A stretch of 64,000 nt of DNA from an uncultured Candidatus Saccharibacteria bacterium. Lineage in GTDB: Bacteria > Patescibacteriota > Minisyncoccia > Phycocordibacterales > DATDWN01. Location of the stretch: positions 3,721 through 67,720 of the forward strand of contig CAYXZA010000003.1 of assembly GCA_964469605.1 (NCBI GenBank), given 5' to 3'. Every line of letters begins with the position of its first letter. Position 1 is the stretch's first letter. Below, piece after piece: positions 26,401 through 44,400 of the stretch. The notes under the pieces were generated by a model. That model was not told the DNA's origin. It was given only the letters and a program-made list of their open reading frames with translations, and did no database searches. The translations under genes were made by a program, and so were the position numbers.

Positions 26401-26518
26401 GTGACCCTACGGGGAATCGTCCGCCAGTAAAATTTTGTCGTCACAAAATTTTCTCGTGTCCGCGACTCGCGACCTAGTCTGTTGACTAGGTGCCCGCTCC
26501 GTCTTTCGATTCCCCACG
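26401..26518 (-). other. tRNA-Glu trailer element. It has an anti-T-arm motif, hairpins, and a duplicate of the tRNA-Glu 3' end.
   Basis: gtgaccctacggggaatcg (26401-26419) is identical to 26608-26626 inside tRNA-Glu. The inverted partner cgattccccac lies at 26508-26518. Internal hairpins gtcgcgagtcgcggac and ctagtctgttgactag are present. Confidence 0.4.
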
Positions 26519-26568
26519 AAATTGCATAATATGCAATTTCTGTATTGTCACAGGATATTCAAAAACAA

Positions 26569-26590
26569 AAAATCCCTACTGGGAATTTTT
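26569..26590 (-). terminator. Terminator hairpin after tRNA-Glu (minus strand).
   Basis: Minus-sense aaaaattcccagtagggatttttt. The stem resembles the aattcccg.aagggaatt hairpin that follows tRNA-Tyr. Confidence 0.45.
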
Positions 26591-26605: not shown

Positions 26606-26680
26606 TGGTGACCCTACGGGGAATCGAACCCCGATTTAAGCCTTGAAAAGGCCGTGTCCTAACCGTTAGACGATAGGGCC
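26606..26680 (-). tRNA. tRNA-Glu (anticodon TTC), CCA encoded.
   Basis: Reverse complement is ggccctatcgtctaacggttaggacacggccttttcaaggcttaaatcggggttcgattccccgtagggtcacca. Anticodon loop ttttcaa. T arm cgggg-ttcgatt-ccccg. Confidence 0.85.
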
Positions 26681-30979: not shown

Positions 30980-31031
30980 CTTAGACTCCTTTTGTAATTA
31001 TGCATATTATATAAATATATGTCAAATCTTG

Positions 31032-31153
31032 TGGGCAAGGAGGGACTTTACCTCGAAAAAACTAGTCTCAGTCAGACTAGTTTTTTCTGGTCACCAGTTT
31101 GTCGACAAGCACTGCTGTGCTCGTAGACCGACAAACTGTTCTCGTCCCTCTCA
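31032..31153 (-). other. tRNA-Leu trailer element (distal copy). It has a tRNA-Leu 3'-end copy, a terminator hairpin, an anti-T-arm motif and a covarying stem-loop.
   Basis: tgggcaaggagggact (31032-31047) matches the tRNA-Leu(TAG) 3' end. Hairpin aaaaaactagtctcagtcagactagtttttt is present. Minus-sense gagggacgagaac and ggtctacgagcacagcagtgcttgtcgac are present. Confidence 0.4.
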
Positions 31154-31165
31154 TAAAGCTCCGCT

Positions 31166-31318
31166 TTATTCGAGAAATACCCCTCAGCTTTGCTGTGGGG
31201 ATTGGTAAAAGAGTGTCGGCGGTGGCCGACTCCTATACGAATATAAGAGCCATGGTTCGCCTCGCCAATACCTCGTTTGCTCTGCCAGCGAGGATCAGGC
31301 GAGGCGACTGCTTTTATT
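31166..31318. repeat. GC-rich structured repeat family, copy A (~150 bp).
   Basis: ttattcgagaaatacccctcagctttgctgtgggg...cgcctcgccaatacctcgtttgctctgccagcgaggatcaggcgaggcgactgcttttatt is ~96% identical to 51429-51581. Strong internal hairpins are present. Confidence 0.8.
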
Positions 31319-31478
31319 CTTGCTCCAACTAAAAAGCCGCCTAAGCGACTTTTTAGTGTGGACGAACAGTGTGGCTTTCCGAACTAGGGAAGTATAAGGG
31401 TTAAATAAGTTTAAGTATTAAAGAATTAAGTTTCATAAACGAGAAAGCCACGAGTGGTCTGTGACTTCTCGTGGCTTG

Positions 31479-31718
31479 TTAGTCGCCAATTGCGTTTTGA
31501 CGACCTGGCTGGGATTGGTGTTTCCAGTTCTTGGCTCCCTCATCAGCCAGGTACTTCAGGGCTCTGATGGAGTTTTTTCCATTTCGCATTGCTTGTCGCA
31601 ATGTTGCAGTGAAAAGTTCCTCACCTCCAATTTCCTCTTGAAAGGTTTTACCACCAGCAATAATGGTGATGGTTCCTTTCATTTCAAAACCGCCCGGTAG
31701 TTCATCTTTGGGTAACAT
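31479..31718 (-). CDS. Hypothetical small protein (79 aa).
   Basis: SD gaggagg lies 10 nt upstream of the ATG. Terminator gccacgagaagtcacagaccactcgtggc is present downstream. No family recognised. Confidence 0.4.
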   Translation of the reverse strand: MLPKDELPGGFEMKGTITIIAGGKTFQEEIGGEELFTATLRQAMRNGKNSIRALKYLADEGAKNWKHQSQPGRQNAIGD

Positions 31719-31844
31719 TTTCGCTGTGCCTCCTCATTTGAGTATAGCACATAAATTGCACTATGTCAAATAAGTTCGGAAAACCACCCATCTTATTCAA
31801 AATGAGTTAAAAAATATGTTGAGAAATAAAGTTATTTCGTAAGA

Positions 31845-31862
31845 TGGGCAAGGAGGGACTCG
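31845..31862 (-). repeat. Duplicate of the tRNA-Leu(TAG) 3' end (proximal copy).
   Basis: tgggcaaggagggactcg is identical to 31990-32007 in the tRNA gene. Confidence 0.7.
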
Positions 31863-31989
31863 GTTGCAACTTTTGTTTTTCGTGAACTTAAAACAAAGTC
31901 GCGACCCCGCCTCACTTCTTTCTGGCTTTCTCGTCCCTCTCCAAACACACAAAAAATCACCTCAAGAAAGAAGTGATTTTTAGGTGTTG

Positions 31990-32071
31990 TGGGCAAGGAG
32001 GGACTCGAACCCTCAATCCTTACGGAACTAGTTCCTAAGACTAGCGCGTATACCAATTCCGCCACTTGCCC
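31990..32071 (-). tRNA. tRNA-Leu (anticodon TAG) with a long variable arm.
   Basis: Reverse complement is gggcaagtggcggaattggtatacgcgctagtcttaggaactagttccgtaaggattgagggttcgagtccctccttgccca. Anticodon loop cttagga. Confidence 0.85.
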
Positions 32072-37312: not shown

Positions 37313-39982
37313 ATGCCACCATTTAATCATTTCACTACCAAAGCAAAAGATGCAATAAGAAGGGCTCATGAGCTCGCAATAGAAAGAGGTCAGAACCATG
37401 TAAATGTTATGCATCTTTTAACAGCTCTTGTTGTTCAAGAAGAGAGTATGGTTATATCTATTTTAGAAAAAATGGATGTTGATACTATACTTTTAACAGA
37501 CTCACTTTTAGATAGTATGGATGGTGAAGATACTGGTCAAACTCTTTCTGCTTCTTATCAACTTTATTTAACTCCTGAACTTGCCCAGGTCATTGAACAT
37601 TCTGACCGTGTTGCAAAGGGTATGAAAGATGAATTTGTCTCAACTGAACATTTGTTTTTGGCTACACTTGATATTCCAAGTCAAGCAAGAGATATAATAT
37701 CAAAATTTAAAGTAACAAAAGATAAAGTTTTGTTTGCAATAGAAGAAATTAAAAATCAAAAAACTGATGATAAAAGTTCTGTTAAAAAATTTAAATCACT
37801 TTCTAAATACACCAGAAGTTTAACAAAACTAGCTTTGGCAAATAAACTAGATCCTGTCATTGGTCGTGATGATGAGATAGCTAGAATAATCCAAATACTT
37901 TCAAGAAGAACAAAAAATAATCCGATTTTGATAGGTGAGGCTGGTGTTGGAAAAACTGCTATTGCTGAAGGTTTGGCAATAAAAATGGCAACAGGAGATA
38001 TTCCAGAATCTCTAAAAGATAAAGAGCTTGTTTCTTTGGATTTAGGTCTTTTGATAGCTGGAACAAAATACAGAGGTGAGTTTGAAGAAAGACTTAAAAA
38101 CATACTAAAAGAAGTTGAAAAATCTGACGGCAAAATAATTTTGTTTATAGACGAAATACATACTATAGTTGGAGCTGGTGCAGCCGAGGGGTCAATGGAT
38201 GCTTCAAATATGCTTAAACCGGCACTTGCAAGAGGTGAGCTTCGTGCTATCGGAGCAACAACTCTAAGGGAGTATCAAAAACATATTGAAAAAGATCCAG
38301 CACTAACAAGAAGATTTCAACCTGTTTATGTAAACGAGCCTTCTGTTGAAGATGCCATAACTATACTTCGTGGTTTAAAAGAGAGATATGAACTATTTCA
38401 CGGTGTTAGGATCACAGATGAAGCTATTGTTTCTGCGGTTAACCTTTCTTCAAGGTATATAACAGATAGATTTTTGCCAGATAAAGCCGTTGACCTTATA
38501 GATGAAGCATCTTCTTATTTAAAAATTTCTTTGGAAAATATGCCACCTGTGCTACAAGAAACAAATTCCAAAGTTGTTAAACTTGAAATAGAAAAAGAAG
38601 CTCTTAAAAAAGAAACTGATGTAAAATCTAAAAACAGAATAAAAGAAATTGAAAAAGAAATCGCTGATCTGAAAGAAAAGACATCCGAGATTGAACTTAA
38701 ATGGAGAAATGAAAAAGAAACAGTTACTGTTATAAAAGATTTGAAAAAGAAACTTGAAGAGCTTAAAGTTGAAGCTGAAAATGCAGAGCTTAAAGTTGAT
38801 TTAGCTTTGGCTGCTCAAATAAGATACGGGCAGATACCTCTTTGTGAAAGAGATTTGGAAAATGCTATAAAAAGATTGAAAAAGTTACAAAGTGGTAGGA
38901 GGATTTTGAAAGAAGAAATAACAGAGAGTGATATTGCTGTTATAGTTTCAAAATGGACAGGTATCCCAGTTTCTAGAATGCTTGAATCTGAAGCTGATAA
39001 ATTGAGTAGAATGCAAGAAATTTTAGAAAACAGAATCATCGGACAAAAAGAGGCTGTGTTGAAAATATCTGATACTATAAAAAGATCAAGAGCTGGTATA
39101 AGTGATCCAAATAGACCTATTGGCTCTTTTCTATTTTTAGGTCCGACAGGTGTCGGAAAGACAGAATTAACAAAAGCTTTGGCAGAGTTTATGTTTAGCG
39201 ATGAAAAAGCTCTCATAAGGGTTGATATGTCTGAATTTATGGAAAAACATTCAGTTTCAAAGCTTATTGGAGCACCCGCTGGATATGTAGGTTATGATGA
39301 GGGAGGAACATTTACAGAACAAGTAAGACATCGTCCTTATGCCGTAATACTTTTTGATGAAGTTGAAAAAGCTCACCCAGAGGTTTTCAATATCTTGCTT
39401 CAAGTTTTGGATAATGGAAAATTAACAGATGCAAAAGGTAGAGTTGTTAATTTTAGAAATACTGTAATTATTTTGACTTCAAATATAGGTGCAGAACATA
39501 TAGACAAGATGGAAAAGCTCGGATTTAGTGCGGATAAGACAGCCAATGCAAATTATACAGATGCAAAAGAAAAAATAAATTCATCTCTGAAAAATTATTT
39601 TAGACCAGAGTTTATAAACAGATTAGATGAGATAGTTATATTTGATATATTGTCTCCTGATGCTATAAAAGAAATTGTTAAAATACAAATAGATATAATA
39701 ACAAACAGATTAAAGGAAAAAGATATTAAACTAAGTTTCTCAAAAGAAGTTTTAGATGTGTTGGCAAAGGACGGATATAACCCACAATATGGAGCAAGAC
39801 CACTGAAAAGGCTTATACAGACAAAAATATTAAATCCAATAGCAAATCTGATAATAGGAAAAAAAGTTTTCAAAGGTGGTGTTATAAATATAGGATATAA
39901 AAATGAAGAGTTTAACTTTGAAGTTAAAAATTCTAAAAAGATATTGGGTGATAGTTTTATTGTGTCTGGTTTATCTGTTTGA
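37313..39982 (+). CDS. clpB: Chaperone ClpB (two AAA+ modules plus a middle coiled-coil domain).
   Basis: Walker A motifs GEAGVGKTAIAEGLA and GPTGVGKTELTKALA are present. The NBD2 signature and a long coiled-coil insert are present. Confidence 0.9.
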   Translation: MPPFNHFTTKAKDAIRRAHELAIERGQNHVNVMHLLTALVVQEESMVISILEKMDVDTILLTDSLLDSMDGEDTGQTLSASYQLYLTPELAQVIEHSDRVAKGMKDEFVSTEHLFLATLDIPSQARDIISKFKVTKDKVLFAIEEIKNQKTDDKSSVKKFKSLSKYTRSLTKLALANKLDPVIGRDDEIARIIQILSRRTKNNPILIGEAGVGKTAIAEGLAIKMATGDIPESLKDKELVSLDLGLLIAGTKYRGEFEERLKNILKEVEKSDGKIILFIDEIHTIVGAGAAEGSMDASNMLKPALARGELRAIGATTLREYQKHIEKDPALTRRFQPVYVNEPSVEDAITILRGLKERYELFHGVRITDEAIVSAVNLSSRYITDRFLPDKAVDLIDEASSYLKISLENMPPVLQETNSKVVKLEIEKEALKKETDVKSKNRIKEIEKEIADLKEKTSEIELKWRNEKETVTVIKDLKKKLEELKVEAENAELKVDLALAAQIRYGQIPLCERDLENAIKRLKKLQSGRRILKEEITESDIAVIVSKWTGIPVSRMLESEADKLSRMQEILENRIIGQKEAVLKISDTIKRSRAGISDPNRPIGSFLFLGPTGVGKTELTKALAEFMFSDEKALIRVDMSEFMEKHSVSKLIGAPAGYVGYDEGGTFTEQVRHRPYAVILFDEVEKAHPEVFNILLQVLDNGKLTDAKGRVVNFRNTVIILTSNIGAEHIDKMEKLGFSADKTANANYTDAKEKINSSLKNYFRPEFINRLDEIVIFDILSPDAIKEIVKIQIDIITNRLKEKDIKLSFSKEVLDVLAKDGYNPQYGARPLKRLIQTKILNPIANLIIGKKVFKGGVINIGYKNEEFNFEVKNSKKILGDSFIVSGLSV

Positions 39983-40017
39983 TATAATATGAGTATTATT
40001 ATAAGTTTAATATATAT

Positions 40018-40311
40018 ATGAAAAGAGAAGGAGAAGGAGAAAAATTTATTAATGAATTTAATCCTAAAATTATAAAACCAGAGGGTAAAATAGAATTAAA
40101 AAACGATATAATTACTGATAAAGAAAATTATACAAAGGAAAAAGCATGTCTTTCTTGTGGTAGATTAGGTCATTCTGCAACAAATTGTCCAGAGGCAAAT
40201 ATAAAATTAAATAAAAATAAATTTGCAACTGATATAGAGTATAGATGTAGTAAATGTGGTTTACTTGGTCATTTGGATGAAAATTGTCCTACCCACACTG
40301 AAAGTTTATAG
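40018..40311 (+). CDS. Small protein with two CCHC zinc knuckles (retroviral-type CX2CX4HX4C).
   Basis: CLSCGRLGHSATNC and CSKCGLLGHLDENC are both exact CX2CX4HX4C patterns. Confidence 0.5.
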   Translation: MKREGEGEKFINEFNPKIIKPEGKIELKNDIITDKENYTKEKACLSCGRLGHSATNCPEANIKLNKNKFATDIEYRCSKCGLLGHLDENCPTHTESL

Positions 40312-40404
40312 ATTATTCTTAGATAAAAATAATAAAATTTAAAACAAATCTCGGTAAATTCCGAGATTTGTTTTGTTTTTAAAATATGATATTCTATTTG
40401 TATT

Positions 40405-40488
40405 GCGTCGGTGGCGGAGTGGTCAATCGCAGCAGACTGTAAATCTGTCGCCCATTGGGCTACGTAGGTTCAAATCCTACCCGGCGCA
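40405..40488 (+). tRNA. tRNA-Tyr (anticodon GTA) with a long variable arm.
   Basis: Acceptor gcgtcgg/ccggcgc. Anticodon loop ctgtaaa. Variable arm cgcccattgggc. T arm gtagg-ttcaaat-cctac. Confidence 0.8.
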
Positions 40489-40885
40489 CAAAAATAATTC
40501 CCGTAAGGGAATTTTTTGGTGTGCAGGGAATAAACCTCTTGGGAGAGGTTTATGTTAGGATTTGAACGACGGAGCTAAAAATTTTCAGTAGAAAATTTTG
40601 CGAGTCGGTGCCTAGCCTAAAATTTTTTGACGAAAAAATTTTAAGGCGAAGGAAAACTCCTACCCGGCGCACAAAAAGAAAACCCGAAAGGGTTTTTCTT
40701 TTTGTCGACCGGAGCAAAGCATCGCTTTGCGAGTAGGATTTGAACAGAAAAGCGGTCTACAAATTCAGCAGAATTTGTCGCTTTTCTGGCGACTAGGTTT
40801 TTTCTGAGTGGCGACGAAGAAAAAATGTAGTCAAAATTCCTACCCGGCGCACAAAAATAATTCCCGAAAGGGAATTTTTTGATTT
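40489..40885 (+). repeat. Three tandem tRNA-Tyr trailer units. Each ends in a copy of the tRNA 3' end (tcctacccggcgcaca) plus a terminator-like hairpin.
   Basis: tcctacccggcgcaca occurs at 40473-40488 (the tRNA itself), 40659-40674 and 40848-40863. Each is followed by aattcccg.aagggaatt or gaaaacccgaaagggttttc. Anti-T motif aggatttgaac occurs at 40557 and 40736. Covarying stem-loop at 40755-40782. Confidence 0.75.
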
Positions 40886-40901
40886 ACTTCAAAATATAAA
40901 T

Positions 40902-41306
40902 ATGGTAGATTTTTTTGAGATGGAAAAGAAATTAAACATCTTGTTAATTGAAGACGATCTTCATATTCGGCAAGGTCTTGAAATGTTTTTAATAAGATTA
41001 GGATACAATGTTACTTCTTTTGATAATATTAAAGATCCAAAAGATTTAATTTTAAACGATGAAGTACCTGACATCATTGTTTCTGACAATCAAGTTATTG
41101 GTGGTTACGGGTCTGATTTTTTAGCTTGGTTAAGAAGTGACGATTCTGTTCCAAAACAAGCAAAAAATATACCATTTATATTAATGAGCGGATCTGATCT
41201 TAGAGAAAGATGTAAAGGGTTTGATAAATGCTCTTTTTTACAAAAACCTTTTGTTTTTGGTAAATTAAAAGAAGTTATAGAAGAATTTTTCCCAGACTCG
41301 CAGTAG
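40902..41306 (+). CDS. Stand-alone response-regulator receiver (CheY-like) domain protein.
   Basis: NILLIEDDLHIRQGLEMFL is present. The phospho-acceptor region is PDIIVSDNQVIGG. The conserved K region is ILMSG. Confidence 0.65.
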   Translation: MVDFFEMEKKLNILLIEDDLHIRQGLEMFLIRLGYNVTSFDNIKDPKDLILNDEVPDIIVSDNQVIGGYGSDFLAWLRSDDSVPKQAKNIPFILMSGSDLRERCKGFDKCSFLQKPFVFGKLKEVIEEFFPDSQ

Positions 41307-41402
41307 GCGGGTTTTTTGTTTTAAAAATATTTGTGTATTTCTCTGTATTGTTAAAATTTTTTATGATATAATTTTATTATAAAAATTATTATTTAAGTTT
41401 TA

Positions 41403-44400
41403 TTGGTTATGATTAAAAAATTTATCTCGCTTGGTTTACTTTTTGTTTTTGTATTTATACTGTTTTCTTCTTCAAATTCTGGTGGCTTTAAACATAGACT
41501 TCAAACCGGTGCTGTGGCACTTGCAGGTCAAGATGAAAAAGTTTTGACAAAAACTTTTGATCTAAAAGGTTCTTCATCTGAAATTTCTGGTAGAACAGAT
41601 GGTTCAACTGTAACACCTGTTGTTGGTCCAACAGGAACTGTAAAGGTTAGAGGTCAGGGATCTGTAAACTTTATTCCAACAAGTTCAGGAAATGGAATCT
41701 CTTTTGAAAAAGGTAATACTCAAAATGATAACACAGCTTTTTATCTTTTTAGAGGTGCGGATATTGTAAATCTCCTAGATTATACAGAAGGTGAAATAAG
41801 TTTTACTTTAAAATCCAAGTATTCTTATAATGAAAGAATAAATCTCCCAAGTTATTATAAATATAGAACTCCATTTTCAATAGAAGATTCATCTGTTGGT
41901 TCATCTATATCTTTTTACACAGAACCAACTCAGTTTACATTTAACTTTAAAGGAACAAGTGTAAACAGAGTCTTGTCTCAAAAAGAGTTTGAAGATTATT
42001 TTGATAAAGACAAAGAGTTAAAGGTTAGATTAGTTTGGGGTGCTGGAAAATGTAGTATATATCTAAATAATAATCTATATACAAGCAAGTCTTGTGCAAC
42101 AGATAGTCAATTATCATCAAACTCTTTGATGTCAATCGGTGCTGATAAGCCTAGCTCTTATGGTGGTGGTTGGTGGGCAAATGATGACATAATGAGTGAT
42201 TTTTCTATAAGTAAATATGCATATGTGGACAGAAGAGGACCTGAGATAAGAAATGTTTCTATTGTCGAAGATTTAACTTCAGCTTCTATTTCTTGGAATA
42301 CAGATGAGGATTCAACTGGTGATGTTGATTATGGAACTCTTCTTTCTTATGGAAAATCTGTATCGTCATCTAATCCATCTAAAAATCATTCAGTATCTAT
42401 AACAGGACTTATTCCTGGAACATTTTATAATTTTATAATCAGATCAAGAGATATTTCTGGTAATATAGCCAAGACTATAAATAATACTTTTACAACTAAA
42501 AATCCTACAACAGTTGACCCTATACCACCTACTAACCCAAACCCAACAAATCCGCCAACAAATCCGGTAAATCCAACACCACTTCCTCCTATTGTAACAA
42601 ATGCTGTAAACAAAATAACTATAAAAGAAATATCTGGTCAAACTCAAACAAACAGAGTATTTTCTATTTCAAGAATATTTAAACAAGGTGATATTGCCAA
42701 TTTTCCACAAGCTAAAATCGGTGGAAATACCATAAACACTCAAGCTGATGTAAAAAACAGATGGCCAGATGGATCTGTAAAGCATGCTATGATTTCTTTC
42801 ATAACAACAGTATCAGCTAACTCATCTGTTGATGTTGAATTTGTTAACCAATCTTCTTGTAACTGTAATTCAGGTCTTTCTGCAACAGATATGCTTTCTT
42901 CAAAATACGGTTTAGATGCCTCAATGACAGTTTCTCCTGGTGGAACAGTTAGTGCGAGGGATATCATACAATCCGGTAATTTTAGATACTGGCTTTCTGG
43001 TCCAATAGTAACTCAGGTTATTGTTGAAGATAGAACACCTGCTAGATCTTTTGATCTTTCTTTTGGAAGTCAAAAATCATTTCACCCGATGTTTATAGTT
43101 TCTTTTTATCCATCAGATTCAAATGTCAAGGTTGATTTTATAGGTGAAAATGTTTGGGTTGATGGACTTAAAGATATTAAATATTCACTTACACTTAACC
43201 TAGATGGTAAAACAGTTTATTCAAAGAGGGATTTTGTCCAGTCATATGCAACAAGATGGAGACAGACTTTCTATAAAAACAAACCAACTGATATTCAAAT
43301 AGATCATAATTTAGCTTATTTAGTATCAACAAAAGCACTTCCAAACTTTGATACAAGTATAAGGATAAGTGATACTGCAATAAATGATGGGGTTAACAAA
43401 CCTTGGAATAGTCAATGTGATAGTCCTTCTTGGGTAAATGCAGTTTCAAGTGGGAAAACTGATATAGGTGGAACTGCACAGGTTTGTACTTATATACCAG
43501 CTCCTGGTGGGAGACCAGATTTGGGACTTATACCAGGATGGTATGTTAGGTATTTGTATTCTATGTCATCAAATAATCCTTTGGCATATAAATATCTTGA
43601 TATTATGAAAGGAAATGCAGATGTTTCTGGTTCAATAAGAATGAATTATAGAGAAACTAAGACTAATAAAAATTTCAGCAACAATGTTCCAGAATCAGCT
43701 TTTGGTAAAAGTTTATCTTTGGATTCTAGATTGGGATATACACTTATTGGTGGACAAGGGGATGCGGCGGAAGGTGATTCTATATATTTTGTCCCAGGAG
43801 GTGAGTTAAGTGGTAGAAATGGCTTAGAACCTGAACTTGCCCATTTACCATCACTTTCTTATGTTCCATACATAATGACAGGAGATTATTACTATCTTGA
43901 AAATCAATATATGGCAGCATCTTATGCTATAGGAACTGGTGCTGACTTTGATGCTTATAGAAAGAGAAATCCAAATACTGCTGGTATTATAGCTAGAACA
44001 GAATATAGAGGAGTTGGTTGGGGATTGAGAGAAGTAGGATTTGCTGGATTTATTGCCCCTGATAACACACCAGAAAAAGAATATTTTACAAGAATATTAA
44101 ATAGAAATATTGCTTTTTATGAAGGTTTGTATAACTTAAGAGATGGTAATTTCTTTGATTCAAGTTGCAATAATAGACAATTTAACAGACTAACAGAGAC
44201 AAATGTTTGGTGTTATGGAAATAAAATAGATACTATTTGGTTGTGGTATAACAGTGTAGGTGATGTTAGAACAGATAACCCTATGAAAATATTGGAACCT
44301 GGAAATAAAGGTTATGCTGTAACTAATCCTCCTTTTAATACAGATAAAGTTACTGCACTTGAGGCACCTTGGGGTTGGGGTTATAACTTAAATGTTTGGG

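Follow-up and report, generated by a model that had tools for sequence, protein, structure and literature searches.

The window, by which we mean the whole analysed stretch of 64,000 nt (contig CAYXZA010000003.1, positions 3,721 to 67,720, of the uncultured Candidatus Saccharibacteria assembly GCA_964469605.1), contains a tRNA-Tyr gene surrounded by ORFs for ClpB, a zinc-knuckle protein and a response regulator. A block of 47 nt, which runs from the 3' half of the tRNA-Tyr T loop to the 3' end of the gene and on through the trailer and the terminator, was found by repeat search in three copies, spaced by 183 and 180 nt. The window holds exactly three copies of the 14-mer CCTACCCGGCGCAC (0 expected from 100 shuffles). 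The elements of this array are listed below.

40405..40488, + strand: tRNA-Tyr(GUA), CCA not encoded (ARAGORN; Rfam RF00005, 60.4 bits)
40472..40518, + strand: block copy 1, with the T-loop 3' half, T-stem 3' strand, acceptor 3' strand, A73, trailer CAAAAA, terminator T1 and T run (repeat family D1; terminator scan)
40496-40513, + strand: terminator T1 hairpin, AATTCCCgtaaGGGAATT (terminator scan, both strands)
40655..40701, + strand: block copy 2, 81% identical, with X (a copy of the tRNA-Tyr 3' end) closing unit 2, and terminator T2 (repeat search; terminator scan)
40678-40697, + strand: terminator T2 hairpin, GAAAACCCgaaaGGGTTTT(T)C (terminator scan, both strands)
40835..40881, + strand: block copy 3, 96% identical, with X closing unit 3, and terminator T1' (repeat search; terminator scan)
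40859-40876, + strand: terminator T1' hairpin, AATTCCCgaaaGGGAATT (terminator scan, both strands)

All three hairpins have the G+C-rich stem-loop and the T run of intrinsic (rho-independent) terminators, and they are terminator-like on both strands in a scan that returned 10 sites against 0.7 expected. The threefold occurrence of the tRNA-Tyr 3' end with a hairpin, which the preliminary description had placed at a spacing of ~185 bp, is thus real, and the three hairpin sequences read as given there. The middle stem is indeed unlike the other two and fully complementary; its description as compensatory fits less well than common ancestry, because the tRNA-Tyr of the relative L004 (83% in ClpB) carries the same terminator stem as T2. 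The claim that the stem seen in the other two hairpins also follows tRNA-Glu (26569-26590) holds for the 5' arm. The 3' arm of that hairpin (AATTCCCagtaGGGATT, ~26587-26571, - strand, from the sequence) is one A short, so the two stems are similar, not identical.

The preliminary description had missed two strongly folded units, homologous to each other, in the intervals between the repeated blocks. Each is a conserved folded unit of ~150 nt closed by one of the two downstream block copies, and the folds of units 2 and 3 have RNAfold z values of -6.1 and -6.35, respectively, in respect to shuffled sequence. Their parts are given below, where R1 is a covariance model of the conserved core.

40519..40528, + strand: unit 2, 5' arm X', GTGTGCAGGG (sequence; MFE folds)
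40530..40553, + strand: unit 2, variable hairpin P2, ATAAACCTCT tggg AGAGGTTTAT (inverted repeat I18, 100% complementary)
40554..40567, + strand: unit 2, box, GTTAGGATTTGAAC (inverted repeat I10)
40552..40665, + strand: unit 2, conserved core with the P4 hairpin (CAGUAG loop), GGUGCC, the P5/P6 hairpin (GACG loop) and GAAGGAAAA (R1 104.3 bits, E 3e-21)
40703..40712, + strand: unit 3, 5' arm X', TGTCGACCGG (inverted repeats I2 and I9; MFE folds)
40714..40730, + strand: unit 3, variable hairpin P2, GCAAAGC atc GCTTTGC (sequence and fold; orthologous hairpin in L004)
40731..40745, + strand: unit 3, box, GAGTAGGATTTGAAC (inverted repeat I4, 16 nt, 94% complementary to tRNA positions 40468-40483)
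40730..40844, + strand: unit 3, conserved core with a long P4 (CAGCAG loop) and P6 with the loop region UGAGUGGCGACGAA (R1 71.5 bits, E 8e-14)

For the arm X' of unit 2, CCCGGCGCAC is the pairing partner at 9/10 positions (one G.U); this partner can be the stretch in the tRNA, reached across T1, or the one in the 3' copy that belongs to the unit. The P2 hairpin is inserted at the point where the acceptor and the T stem meet on the 5' strand, and the relative L084 has the same hairpin at the same place. Within the box, TAGGATTTGAAC corresponds exactly to the reverse complement of tRNA positions 40468-40479, which hold the T loop and the T-stem 3' strand.

Each unit ends in 18 nt that are the same as the tRNA 3' end and has a 5' arm that looks like an acceptor 5' strand, as would be the case for decayed tandem duplicates of tRNA-Tyr. 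Against this origin, neither ARAGORN nor the Rfam tRNA model (RF00005) detects a tRNA within units 2 and 3, the only call in the region being 40405-40488; the unit bodies align to each other and to units beside other tRNAs, not to tRNA-Tyr; and the arms obey a logic of complementarity instead of copying. An array produced by misassembly is very unlikely, since the shared block is only 47 nt long, the unit interiors are unique, and equivalent units, single and tandem, are present in dozens of independent assemblies (L001 and L003, which are the window's own contig, were not counted as independent evidence). We attach next to no probability to pseudogenes or an artefact as the explanation of the array.

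Units of the same kind are found at other tRNA genes of the window, as listed here.

60345..60458, + strand: unit after tRNA-Gln(UUG) 60221-60291, with box CAGGGACGAGAAC and X copy GAGTCCCTGTCTCCCAGC at 60447-60464 (R1 63.7 bits, E 5e-12)
26407..26519, - strand: unit after tRNA-Glu(UUC) 26609-26680, with X copy ATTCCCCGTAGGGTCAC at 26401-26417 (R1 59.9 bits, E 4e-11)
31037..31153, - strand: unit ~840 nt downstream of tRNA-Leu(UAG) 31990-32071, with X copy AGTCCCTCCTTGCCCAC at 31031-31047 (R1 54.2 bits, E 7e-10)
31845..31952, - strand: unit directly after tRNA-Leu(UAG) and its terminator, of the same architecture with a different core subtype, with box GAGGGACGAGAAAG and X copy at 31845-31862 (sequence, repeat search, closed fold; no R1 match)
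6831..6955, + strand: small candidate unit after tRNA-Thr 6756-6828, the weakest assignment, with GGACTTGAAC, which in part complements the T arm, and at 6941 an incomplete X copy, AAGCCTGACAAGT (sequence and fold; no R1 match)

Most tRNA-locus ends in the window therefore bear a unit, clearly at Tyr (two), Gln, Glu and Leu (two) and weakly at Thr, and none is present at the tRNA-Val locus. The distal tRNA-Leu unit closes an islet of ~700 nt with an ORF of 79 aa (31479-31718). The units of the window are diverged paralogues with compensatory differences and not recent copies of one another, which is the pattern of a selected RNA family.

A unit consists of five parts and is 115-190 nt long. 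It lies on the tRNA-sense strand just 3' of the tRNA, usually past the terminator hairpin. The 5' arm X' is complementary to the acceptor 3' strand including the discriminator, and is followed by the variable hairpin P2, usually at the point that matches the acceptor/T-stem junction of the tRNA. The box comes next; it shows complementarity to the T loop and to the 3' strand of the T stem, and has a GAAC end in all units. The core of ~95 nt comprises two covarying hairpins with the conserved loops YAGCAR and GACG. The unit ends with X, the direct copy of the T-loop 3' half, the T-stem 3' strand and the acceptor 3' strand of the tRNA.

In Patescibacteria contigs, 52 members were matched by R1. 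A genome scan with the box and the exact tRNA-Tyr 3' end, an over-specific pattern, gave no match, and the core-based pattern did recover members; ~17 of the 56 metagenome loci were false positives in G+C-rich coding sequence and were discarded. Thirty-three of the 52 members lie 17-87 nt downstream of a tRNA on the same strand, and four lie 200-840 nt downstream (second units of arrays or ends of islets). The tRNAs concerned are Tyr, Ser, Pro, Val, Ile, Gln, Asn, Arg, Trp, Leu and Glu, and at least 11-13 identities are represented in the family overall. Only tRNAs were returned when Rfam was run on the window region 39500-41800 (E<=10), on 16 member loci (E<=1) and on the entire window; no RtT, ribozyme, Y RNA, tmRNA or SRP RNA was among the matches, and the family is absent from Rfam. 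A hammerhead-like CUGANGA...GAAA motif in the P6 loop was judged by eye and rejected, as its spacing and bases misfit. Our literature search found no description of the family in Patescibacteria.

The core alignment has 27 predicted pairs, 24 of them with compensatory changes. Over the 52 R1 members, 95.1% of the cells are paired and changes on both sides are observed in 26/27 pairs; the covariation score is 0.749, compared with 0.20 in shuffles and no more than 0.17 with the partners slid. The counts of G.U (28) and A.C (23) among the core pairs are nearly equal, so the pairs alone do not prove an RNA on the tRNA-sense strand, and they may belong to a folded single-stranded DNA. The strand asymmetry was for this purpose judged by the MFE difference in place of these counts: the fold on the tRNA-sense strand is more stable than that of the reverse complement in 39/40 units (mean -5.8 kcal/mol).

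In every case the arms match the tRNA next to them. For X, the mean length of the longest exact match is 11.7 nt to its own tRNA and 5.5 nt to mismatched tRNAs, and the corresponding values for X' are 6.7 and 4.3 nt. The variable T-stem positions of the box pair with the own tRNA at 2.48 of 3 positions, versus 0.92 in shuffled pairings. Where the T stem of the tRNA is imperfect, with non-Watson-Crick pairs (L009, L013, L026/L045 and L052), the box is the complement of the 3' strand and no copy of the 5' strand. The arm X' often pairs through the discriminator, and through the CCA where this is encoded (L042), hence a mimic that accepts an amino acid does not fit.

These properties bear on the reading of the repeats as att scars, that is, as attL/attR remnants of integrase-encoding elements at tRNA-Tyr with a decayed element in between. 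Partial copies of a tRNA 3' end beside tRNA genes are a known footprint of integrative elements (PMC9897764; tycheposons, bioRxiv 10.1101/2020.12.28.424599), the direct repeats do lie downstream of an intact tRNA gene, and at L008 a 3.3-kb island of two genes separates tRNA-Tyr from a degenerate repeat of the gene's 3' end. There is, on the other side, no integrase in or near any locus, the interior of the repeats is structured, and the inverted complement of the tRNA 3' strand is constant in every unit. Decaying remnants are incompatible with inter-repeat DNA that is conserved, with compensatory base changes, in many contigs and beside tRNAs of at least 11 identities. The att-scar reading is largely refuted by the covariation and the distribution of the family, and we consider it highly improbable. 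The preliminary description had explained the array by repeated integration and excision at one tRNA or by a replicative element family; an element family tied to tRNA 3' ends is what is found, and simple att scars are not, given the missing recombinase, the conserved covarying core and the inverted complement.

With moderate confidence, and as the likeliest of the explanations considered, we interpret each unit as a member of a family of conserved, tRNA-linked structured RNA modules, similar in design to the RtT repeats of E. coli. The anatomy, the covariation, the agreement of the arms with the neighbouring tRNA, the distribution and the variable copy number are observations; transcription, processing and any role in the cell are inferred. 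In a read-through transcript, X' could pair with the 3' strand of the upstream tRNA itself, so that the terminator hairpin would be extended to a duplex of ~30 bp; alternatively, X' could pair with the X of its own unit, forming a helix like that of the acceptor and T arm, capped by the core. Either fold would offer defined duplex or tRNA-like ends, at which tRNA or double-strand processing enzymes could cut the module from the tRNA and set free a separate RNA whose 3' end is of the tRNA type, as reported for E. coli rtT RNA. Arrays would grow, shrink and swap cores via recombination between the X-plus-terminator blocks and within the box and core.

Of the 33 units directly after a tRNA, at least 20 are preceded by a terminator-like hairpin and its T run, and a hairpin of this type follows the unit in only 4/33. 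Since most units lie past a terminator, their transcription would need read-through; a promoter scan for unit-specific promoters gave 9 matches against 6.5 in shuffled sequence, which is no excess. The idea that the unit marks the last tRNA of an operon and supplies an RNase P site fits most loci. It was not adopted as the main mechanism because in L029 a tRNA lies 28 nt past its unit, and because of the position of most units past the terminator.

The number of units varies between relatives. At the orthologous ClpB-tRNA-Tyr locus there are no units, a remnant, one unit, one unit and a fragment, or two units; L005 and L082/L083 lack them and L078 has no more than a remnant, so the units are dispensable at a given locus. 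Cores do not group by tRNA identity, and cores with 91-92% identity adjoin different tRNAs in different genomes (92% for L004, Tyr, and L012, Ile; likewise L015, Ser, and L007, Trp). Small islets of genes lie between copies of the tRNA 3' end at three loci, namely at tRNA-Leu in the window, at L008 and at L037, where two 100% identical cores 1.6 kb apart enclose an islet of two genes. Core identity across tRNAs and the islets flanked by X hint at dynamics at the DNA level.

The same observations suit non-autonomous mobile DNA elements that insert at tRNA 3' ends or past terminators. The 5' arm and the box would then serve as a nucleic-acid guide or imitate the target as a folded single strand; X, in some cases together with the terminator, would be a target or att duplication, the core would be bound by an enzyme acting in trans, and small gene islets could travel along in the space from the left repeat to the terminal unit. 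Such elements would account for the variable presence and copy number at one orthologous locus, for direct repeats that can span the whole terminator (47 nt in the window; 39 nt in L053), for the lack of clustering of cores by tRNA and for the bracketed islets. The typical position just past a terminator would be a harmless landing place, and a DNA hairpin would be in keeping with the almost complete lack of wobble pairs. Several results speak against it. The 256 ORFs within 3.5 kb of units were clustered and only housekeeping families recur, with no recurrent recombinase, transposase, reverse transcriptase or integrase; the scan of viral contigs gave coding false positives and no members. The copies in the genome of the window are old and diverged, without a near-identical burst, and the folding energy favours the tRNA-sense strand. 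The behaviour of the cores is equally explained by gene conversion between resident cores, as in L084 and unit 2 of the window, which have common 5' parts and different cores. We also know of no mechanism by which every hop would rewrite a 20-nt target both as an inverted and as a direct copy. On balance, we regard mobile elements of this type as a somewhat unlikely explanation, though still a serious competitor of the RNA module. Distinctly less probable, in our view, is a more speculative proposal, according to which the units would be the visible part of an undescribed, nucleic-acid-guided system of Patescibacteria that targets tRNA genes. The bipartite complement of the tRNA 3' end, on a small structured RNA or single-stranded DNA, would direct insertion, or the capture of small gene islets, immediately beyond the tRNA concerned and copy the target into its own termini; the enzyme would be encoded elsewhere in the genome and E. 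coli RtT would be a relic of this process.

To our knowledge, the tyrT repeats and the rtT RNA of E. coli have been known for decades without a mechanism, and they seemed peculiar to one operon. The recurrence of the RtT design principle in an unrelated, genome-reduced phylum, in a large family with many tRNA identities and strong structural selection, opens this single-operon oddity to comparison across dozens of natural variants that have retuned arms and swapped cores. It becomes testable whether the structured module serves in the processing or quality control of read-through tRNA transcripts, is a decoy of the tRNA 3' end, or is a mobile element that targets tRNA genes. In a practical respect, the tRNA 3'-end copies can mislead predictors of att sites and islands, as well as the annotation of tRNA fragments, in genomes of the candidate phyla radiation.

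Among known systems, the att sites of genomic islands and tycheposons resemble the units in the tRNA 3' direct repeats downstream of an intact gene, in the arrays and copy-number differences between relatives, and in the islets flanked by X (L008, L037 and tRNA-Leu of the window). The units differ from them by the absence of an integrase, the covarying interior of ~95 nt, the inverted target complement and the length of only 115-190 nt. Helices similar to the acceptor and T arm arise from a non-tRNA context in the MALAT1 mascRNA (PMC8457004), and similar helices in the units could, as in mascRNA and viral tRNA-like structures, recruit tRNA end-processing enzymes. Unlike these modules, the units have no T loop (the core takes its place) and no D or anticodon arm, and their 5' arm often pairs through the discriminator.

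The IS110 bridge RNA, the class C group II introns, which insert after terminators, and the folded single-strand attP of CTX phage are examples of guide-carrying or fold-back elements. The likeness consists in a carried target complement, a site past terminator hairpins and a folded mimic of the target duplex, whereas the units have no recombinase or reverse transcriptase gene in them or close by, and both guide halves of the units bind one strand contiguously. For an IS110 bridge RNA or a TnpB/IscB omega RNA, neither a cognate recombinase or nuclease near any unit nor a matching Rfam family was found.

The closest known system is RtT of E. coli (RF00391), the 178-bp repeats of the tyrT/tyrV operon (rttR). 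The rtT RNA is reported as a product of the tyrT operon, according to PMC3318445, which cites Bosl and Kersten 1991 for it, and its function is still described as unexplained (bioRxiv 10.1101/2024.07.17.603846). E. coli rttR is annotated as an RNA that ends at a tRNA-type 3' end, and the release of the units from the tRNA transcript as discrete RNAs is proposed by analogy with it. With RF00391 no match to the units was obtained in the window region 39500-41800 (E<=10), in the 16 member loci (E<=1) or in the whole window at the gathering threshold (45 bits), and the same tool recovered four RtT copies in E. coli (133-138 bits). In the other direction, R1 with filters off did not match E. coli RtT; the best score, 9 bits, came from the T arms of the tRNA genes themselves. 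RtT and the units thus have a common architecture and no homology detectable by either covariance model.

In E. coli as in the window, units follow tRNA-Tyr directly and in tandem, on its strand, and each closes with the 3' end of the tRNA. The 5' arm of RtT (GGGGAAGGA) pairs with the 3' strand of the T stem and on into the beginning of the acceptor 3' strand, and it is followed by UGAGAAC, where the Gln and Leu units of the window have GAGAAC and the other units UYGAAC. A purine-rich segment and AAUCC, the latter after the core, stand ahead of the tRNA 3' end in RtT. The closing helix between the 5' arm and the copy of the T-stem/acceptor 3' strand is present both in the MFE folds of the units and in the structure line of RtT in Rfam. 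RtT lacks the separate X' arm, the P2 hairpin and the terminator between tRNA and unit, and the core folds of the two differ. In the E. coli locus examined RtT follows only tRNA-Tyr, whereas in Patescibacteria the arms are retuned to at least 11-13 tRNA identities.

The tRNA-Tyr(GUA) gene lies on a contig of 30% G+C from the Patescibacteria (Parcubacteria/Paceibacteria group). The best relatives of the ClpB encoded upstream show 74-83% identity, and the named ones are Parcubacteria, Minisyncoccia or Paceibacteria. A 47-nt block that starts within the tRNA is present in three copies, spaced by 183 and 180 nt, which bears out the triplication of the tRNA-Tyr 3' end and hairpin reported in the preliminary description. 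The locus comprises:

40405-40488, tRNA-Tyr(GUA)
40472-40518, 47-nt block, copy 1
about 40519-40672, unit 2
40655-40701, 47-nt block, copy 2 (81% identical)
about 40703-40852, unit 3
40835-40881, 47-nt block, copy 3 (96% identical)

From 5' to 3', the block takes in the T loop (3' half only), the 3' strands of the T stem and the acceptor stem, A73, the trailer CAAAAA, and then a hairpin with a T run behind it. Three copies of the 14-mer CCTACCCGGCGCAC are present, where chance would give none. The three hairpins (T1, T2 and T1' in copies 1 to 3) have the sequences previously given, and each is terminator-like on both strands. The hairpin stem after tRNA-Glu, described as the same as those at tRNA-Tyr, is similar but not identical, as its 3' arm is short by one A.

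Units 2 and 3, folded elements of ~150 nt, are similar to one another and dissimilar to the tRNA body. Each contains a 5' arm (X'), a variable hairpin (P2), a box complementary to the T arm, a core (hairpins P4 and P5/P6) and a copy of the tRNA 3' end (X). The 12-mer TAGGATTTGAAC, found in both, is the exact reverse complement of the tRNA T loop and T-stem 3' strand. The two units also share a CAGYAG-loop hairpin, and each has a second hairpin made of A and T runs; the 5' hairpins are unrelated in sequence. Folding compared with shuffled controls gave z = -6.1 for unit 2 and -6.35 for unit 3. In the predicted folds, pairing joins the 5' terminus to the tRNA-like 3' terminus, and also GUAGG to CCUAC, so that the modeled unit is a helix resembling a tRNA acceptor and T arm in which the conserved part takes the place of the T loop.

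A search with a core-derived pattern matched 8 species-representative genomes and 56 metagenome loci, ~17 of the latter being coding false positives. A covariance model of the core (R1), built from 41 cores and run on the fetched DNA, detected 52 significant members there. Thirty-three are located 17-87 nt 3' of a same-strand tRNA, 4 further ones 200-840 nt downstream of a tRNA (second array units or islet ends), and the remainder mostly at contig edges. The neighboring tRNAs are Tyr, Ser (two anticodons), Pro, Val (two), Ile, Gln (two), Asn, Arg, Trp, Leu (two) and Glu. Across the true members the core stays the same behind tRNAs of differing identity, and the flanks vary with the tRNA. In the window, R1 members are also present at:

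60345-60458, after tRNA-Gln
26407-26519, minus strand, after tRNA-Glu
31037-31153, minus strand, ~840 nt 3' of tRNA-Leu(UAG)

A window search for second tRNA 3'-end copies gave an extra unit of a different core subtype immediately 3' of tRNA-Leu and a small, weaker candidate unit 3' of tRNA-Thr; in this search, tRNA-Val was the sole window tRNA without a unit. With units after Tyr, Gln, Glu, Leu and, weakly, Thr, most tRNA-locus ends in the 64-kb window thus carry one. No family in Rfam 15 matches the units. The family exceeds the 52 counted members, since other core subtypes, weakly or not detected by R1, are found at L010 ~6800-6960, L013 ~7351-7436 and L084 5875-5969 (L-numbers denote fetched loci on other contigs) and in the 3' flanks of L018, L035, L039, L059 and L060; one such subtype includes ...AGAAACTGTAAGTTTCGAA... 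Several units have an extra 3' hairpin (GGTCGAAAAGCGTACTCGCGGTC) ahead of X.

The arms match the neighboring tRNA. Across 31 tRNA-unit pairs, controlled by mismatched pairings, the longest exact match of X to the tRNA 3' end averages 11.7 nt for the own tRNA and 5.5 nt for mismatched ones, and that of X' to the complement of this end 6.7 and 4.3 nt, respectively. Of the 3 variable T-stem positions in the box, 2.48 pair with the 3' strand of the T stem in the own tRNA and 0.92 in mismatched ones (maximum 1.42 in 200 shuffles). The box position facing T-loop residue 57 also tracks the tRNA, with TTCAAAT matched by ATTTGAA (tRNA-Tyr, Trp, Ser, Pro) and TTCGAAT by ATTCGAA elsewhere. Where the T stem is imperfectly Watson-Crick (L009, L013, L026/L045, L052), the box complements the 3' strand and does not copy the 5' strand; likewise, GCGCCGG in X' stands against GCGUCGG in the tRNA 5' strand. 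The arms are therefore shaped by pairing and do not represent duplicated halves of the tRNA. A reading of these tRNA-matched elements as pseudogenes or an artefact is poorly supported, and we regard it as barely credible. In L006, L009, L014, L018, L031, L038 and L042, X' is perfectly complementary (9-12 nt) to the 3' end of the upstream tRNA despite a decayed X of its own. X' and the terminator (A tract, hairpin, T tract) form an imperfect palindrome of ~25-30 bp per arm, starting within the tRNA, as in L006 and the window inverted repeat I2. Because X' complements both the tRNA 3' strand and its own X, two alternative pairings are open to it.

The core structure is under selection. RNAalifold on a MAFFT-based alignment of the core gave 27 pairs, 24 of which show compensatory double changes. 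In the 52-member alignment, which was fitted to R1 and hence gives somewhat inflated values, although the MAFFT-based result agrees, 95.1% of the cells are in a standard pair (65.6% after shuffling, 39-55% with partners slid), 26 of the 27 pairs are altered on both sides (21.5 and 13-19), and the covariation score is 0.749 (0.20 and at most 0.17). Conserved in the single-stranded parts are GAAC behind the box, the YAGCAR loop of P4, GGUG(C/A)C, the GACG loop of P6 and GAGGGAGAA ahead of X.

The most likely reading, which we hold with about even confidence, is that the units are structured RNA modules of one family, each linked to a tRNA transcription unit. Unit anatomy, covariation, the fit of the arms to the tRNA, distribution and variation in copy number are observed, and transcription, processing and function are inferred. 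The arms would either extend the terminator hairpin across the tRNA 3' strand or pair with the unit's own copy of this strand and so close the module, and both folds would yield duplex or tRNA-like ends for processing. The nearly equal numbers of G.U (28) and A.C (23) core pairs point to neither strand. For whole units, the tRNA-sense strand gives the more stable RNA fold in 39 of 40 cases. Of the 33 units directly 3' of a tRNA, at least 20 are positioned past a terminator-like hairpin and only 4 have such a hairpin behind them, so that expression would require read-through; a promoter scan revealed no unit-specific signal standing out. This is the chief weakness of an explanation at the RNA level.

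The order ClpB, tRNA-Tyr is kept in relatives, and the number of units behind the tRNA varies:

Units after tRNA-Tyr (ClpB identity to the window in brackets)
Window: 2
L004 (83%): 1
L006 (78%): 1 and a fragment
L080/L081: 1
L084: 1, of another core subtype
L078: remnant only (X' and the start of P2)
L005 (80%): none
L082/L083: none

The swapped stem of the middle window copy had been taken as compensatory. The T2 stem is identical to the stem 3' of tRNA-Tyr in L004, and L084 shares T1, X' and P2 of unit 2; two terminator lineages are thus joined at one locus, and the difference is not covariation in place. The stems at L004 2831-2862 and window 40673-40702 are the same (GAAAACCC/GGGTTTTTC), with loops TTTC and GAAA, respectively; only the loop is inverted, and the arm asymmetry is retained. 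Cores are not grouped by the identity of the tRNA: pairs 91-92% identical adjoin Tyr/Ile, Ser/Trp and Val/Tyr. The copy-number changes are explained by recombination between the X-plus-terminator blocks, from which arrays of RNA modules would arise, and the mixing of cores by gene conversion inside the conserved box and core. Units may also have been inserted by mobilization in trans, and a non-autonomous mobile element targeting tRNA genes is a serious, if rather unlikely, rival. Near the units there is no recurring gene for a recombinase, transposase or reverse transcriptase, and the matches in viral contigs include no genuine unit. Classical att scars, a further reading of the repeated tRNA ends, are poorly supported and very improbable.

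Some units or tRNA 3'-end copies bound islets. Between the two units of the window tRNA-Leu(UAG) lies a ~700-nt segment (31154-31844, minus strand) with a 79-aa ORF (31479-31718, minus strand) without a Pfam match; flanked by tRNA-Leu 3'-end copies at 31845 and 31031, it looks like a miniature islet. In L008 (1550-4990, minus strand), a 3.3-kb islet between tRNA-Tyr with its terminator and a unit codes for a ResIII/DEAD helicase of 640 aa that contains four 'integrase repeat unit' (PF14882) repeats, and for a protein of 326 aa without a Pfam match, and ends in a degenerate tRNA 3'-end copy (TACTCCGCAC). The L037 units (1574-1686 and 3206-3318, minus strand), 1.6 kb apart, have 100% identical cores and different 5' arms; the box of the second is mismatched to its own X, so this unit looks chimeric. 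Two proteins are encoded in the islet between these units, one of ~300-370 aa without a significant Pfam match and one of 106 aa that has a topoisomerase-type C4 zinc ribbon.

In the window, the gap between ClpB and tRNA-Tyr holds a 97-aa ORF (40018-40311, plus strand) with two retroviral-type CCHC zinc knuckles (CX2CX4HX4C; Pfam zf-CCHC 27.7 bits, cut-off 20.8; zf-CCHC_4 also passed). Of the relatives, L004, L005 and L006 were examined, and all three lack the ORF here. Nucleic-acid-chaperone CCHC knuckles are unusual in bacteria; the location of this ORF beside a tRNA and complementary modules may be a coincidence. Its exact sequence was found only in the window contig, near-identical contigs and a 523-bp contig of an independent assembly (L002, GCA_013566075.1), which carries the identical gene and stops ~26 nt into tRNA-Tyr, consistent with short-read assemblers halting at a repeat-containing locus. 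In two relatives with ~77-78% ClpB identity the gap is filled by a LAGLIDADG-family ORF (L083 5695-6594, L085 5765-6553). No family unit was detected 3' of tRNA-Tyr in L082/L083, and the L085 contig stops at the tRNA.

The closest known counterpart in layout is RtT (RF00391) of E. coli, with four units at tyrT-tyrV, one in the inter-tRNA spacer and three after tyrV. The RtT 5' arm GGGGAAGGA pairs with UCCUUCCCC, which comprises the 3' strand of the T stem and the first part of that of the acceptor. Next comes UGAGAAC, to which GAGAAC in the units after the window tRNA-Gln and tRNA-Leu corresponds, then the core, ...GAGUAAUCC and the tRNA 3' end including CCA; the annotated rttR RNA terminates exactly at this end, CCA included. 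The layout is the same in both families, whereas the core folds differ and neither covariance model detects the other family. The Patescibacteria family is thus RtT-like in build and not a member of RF00391.
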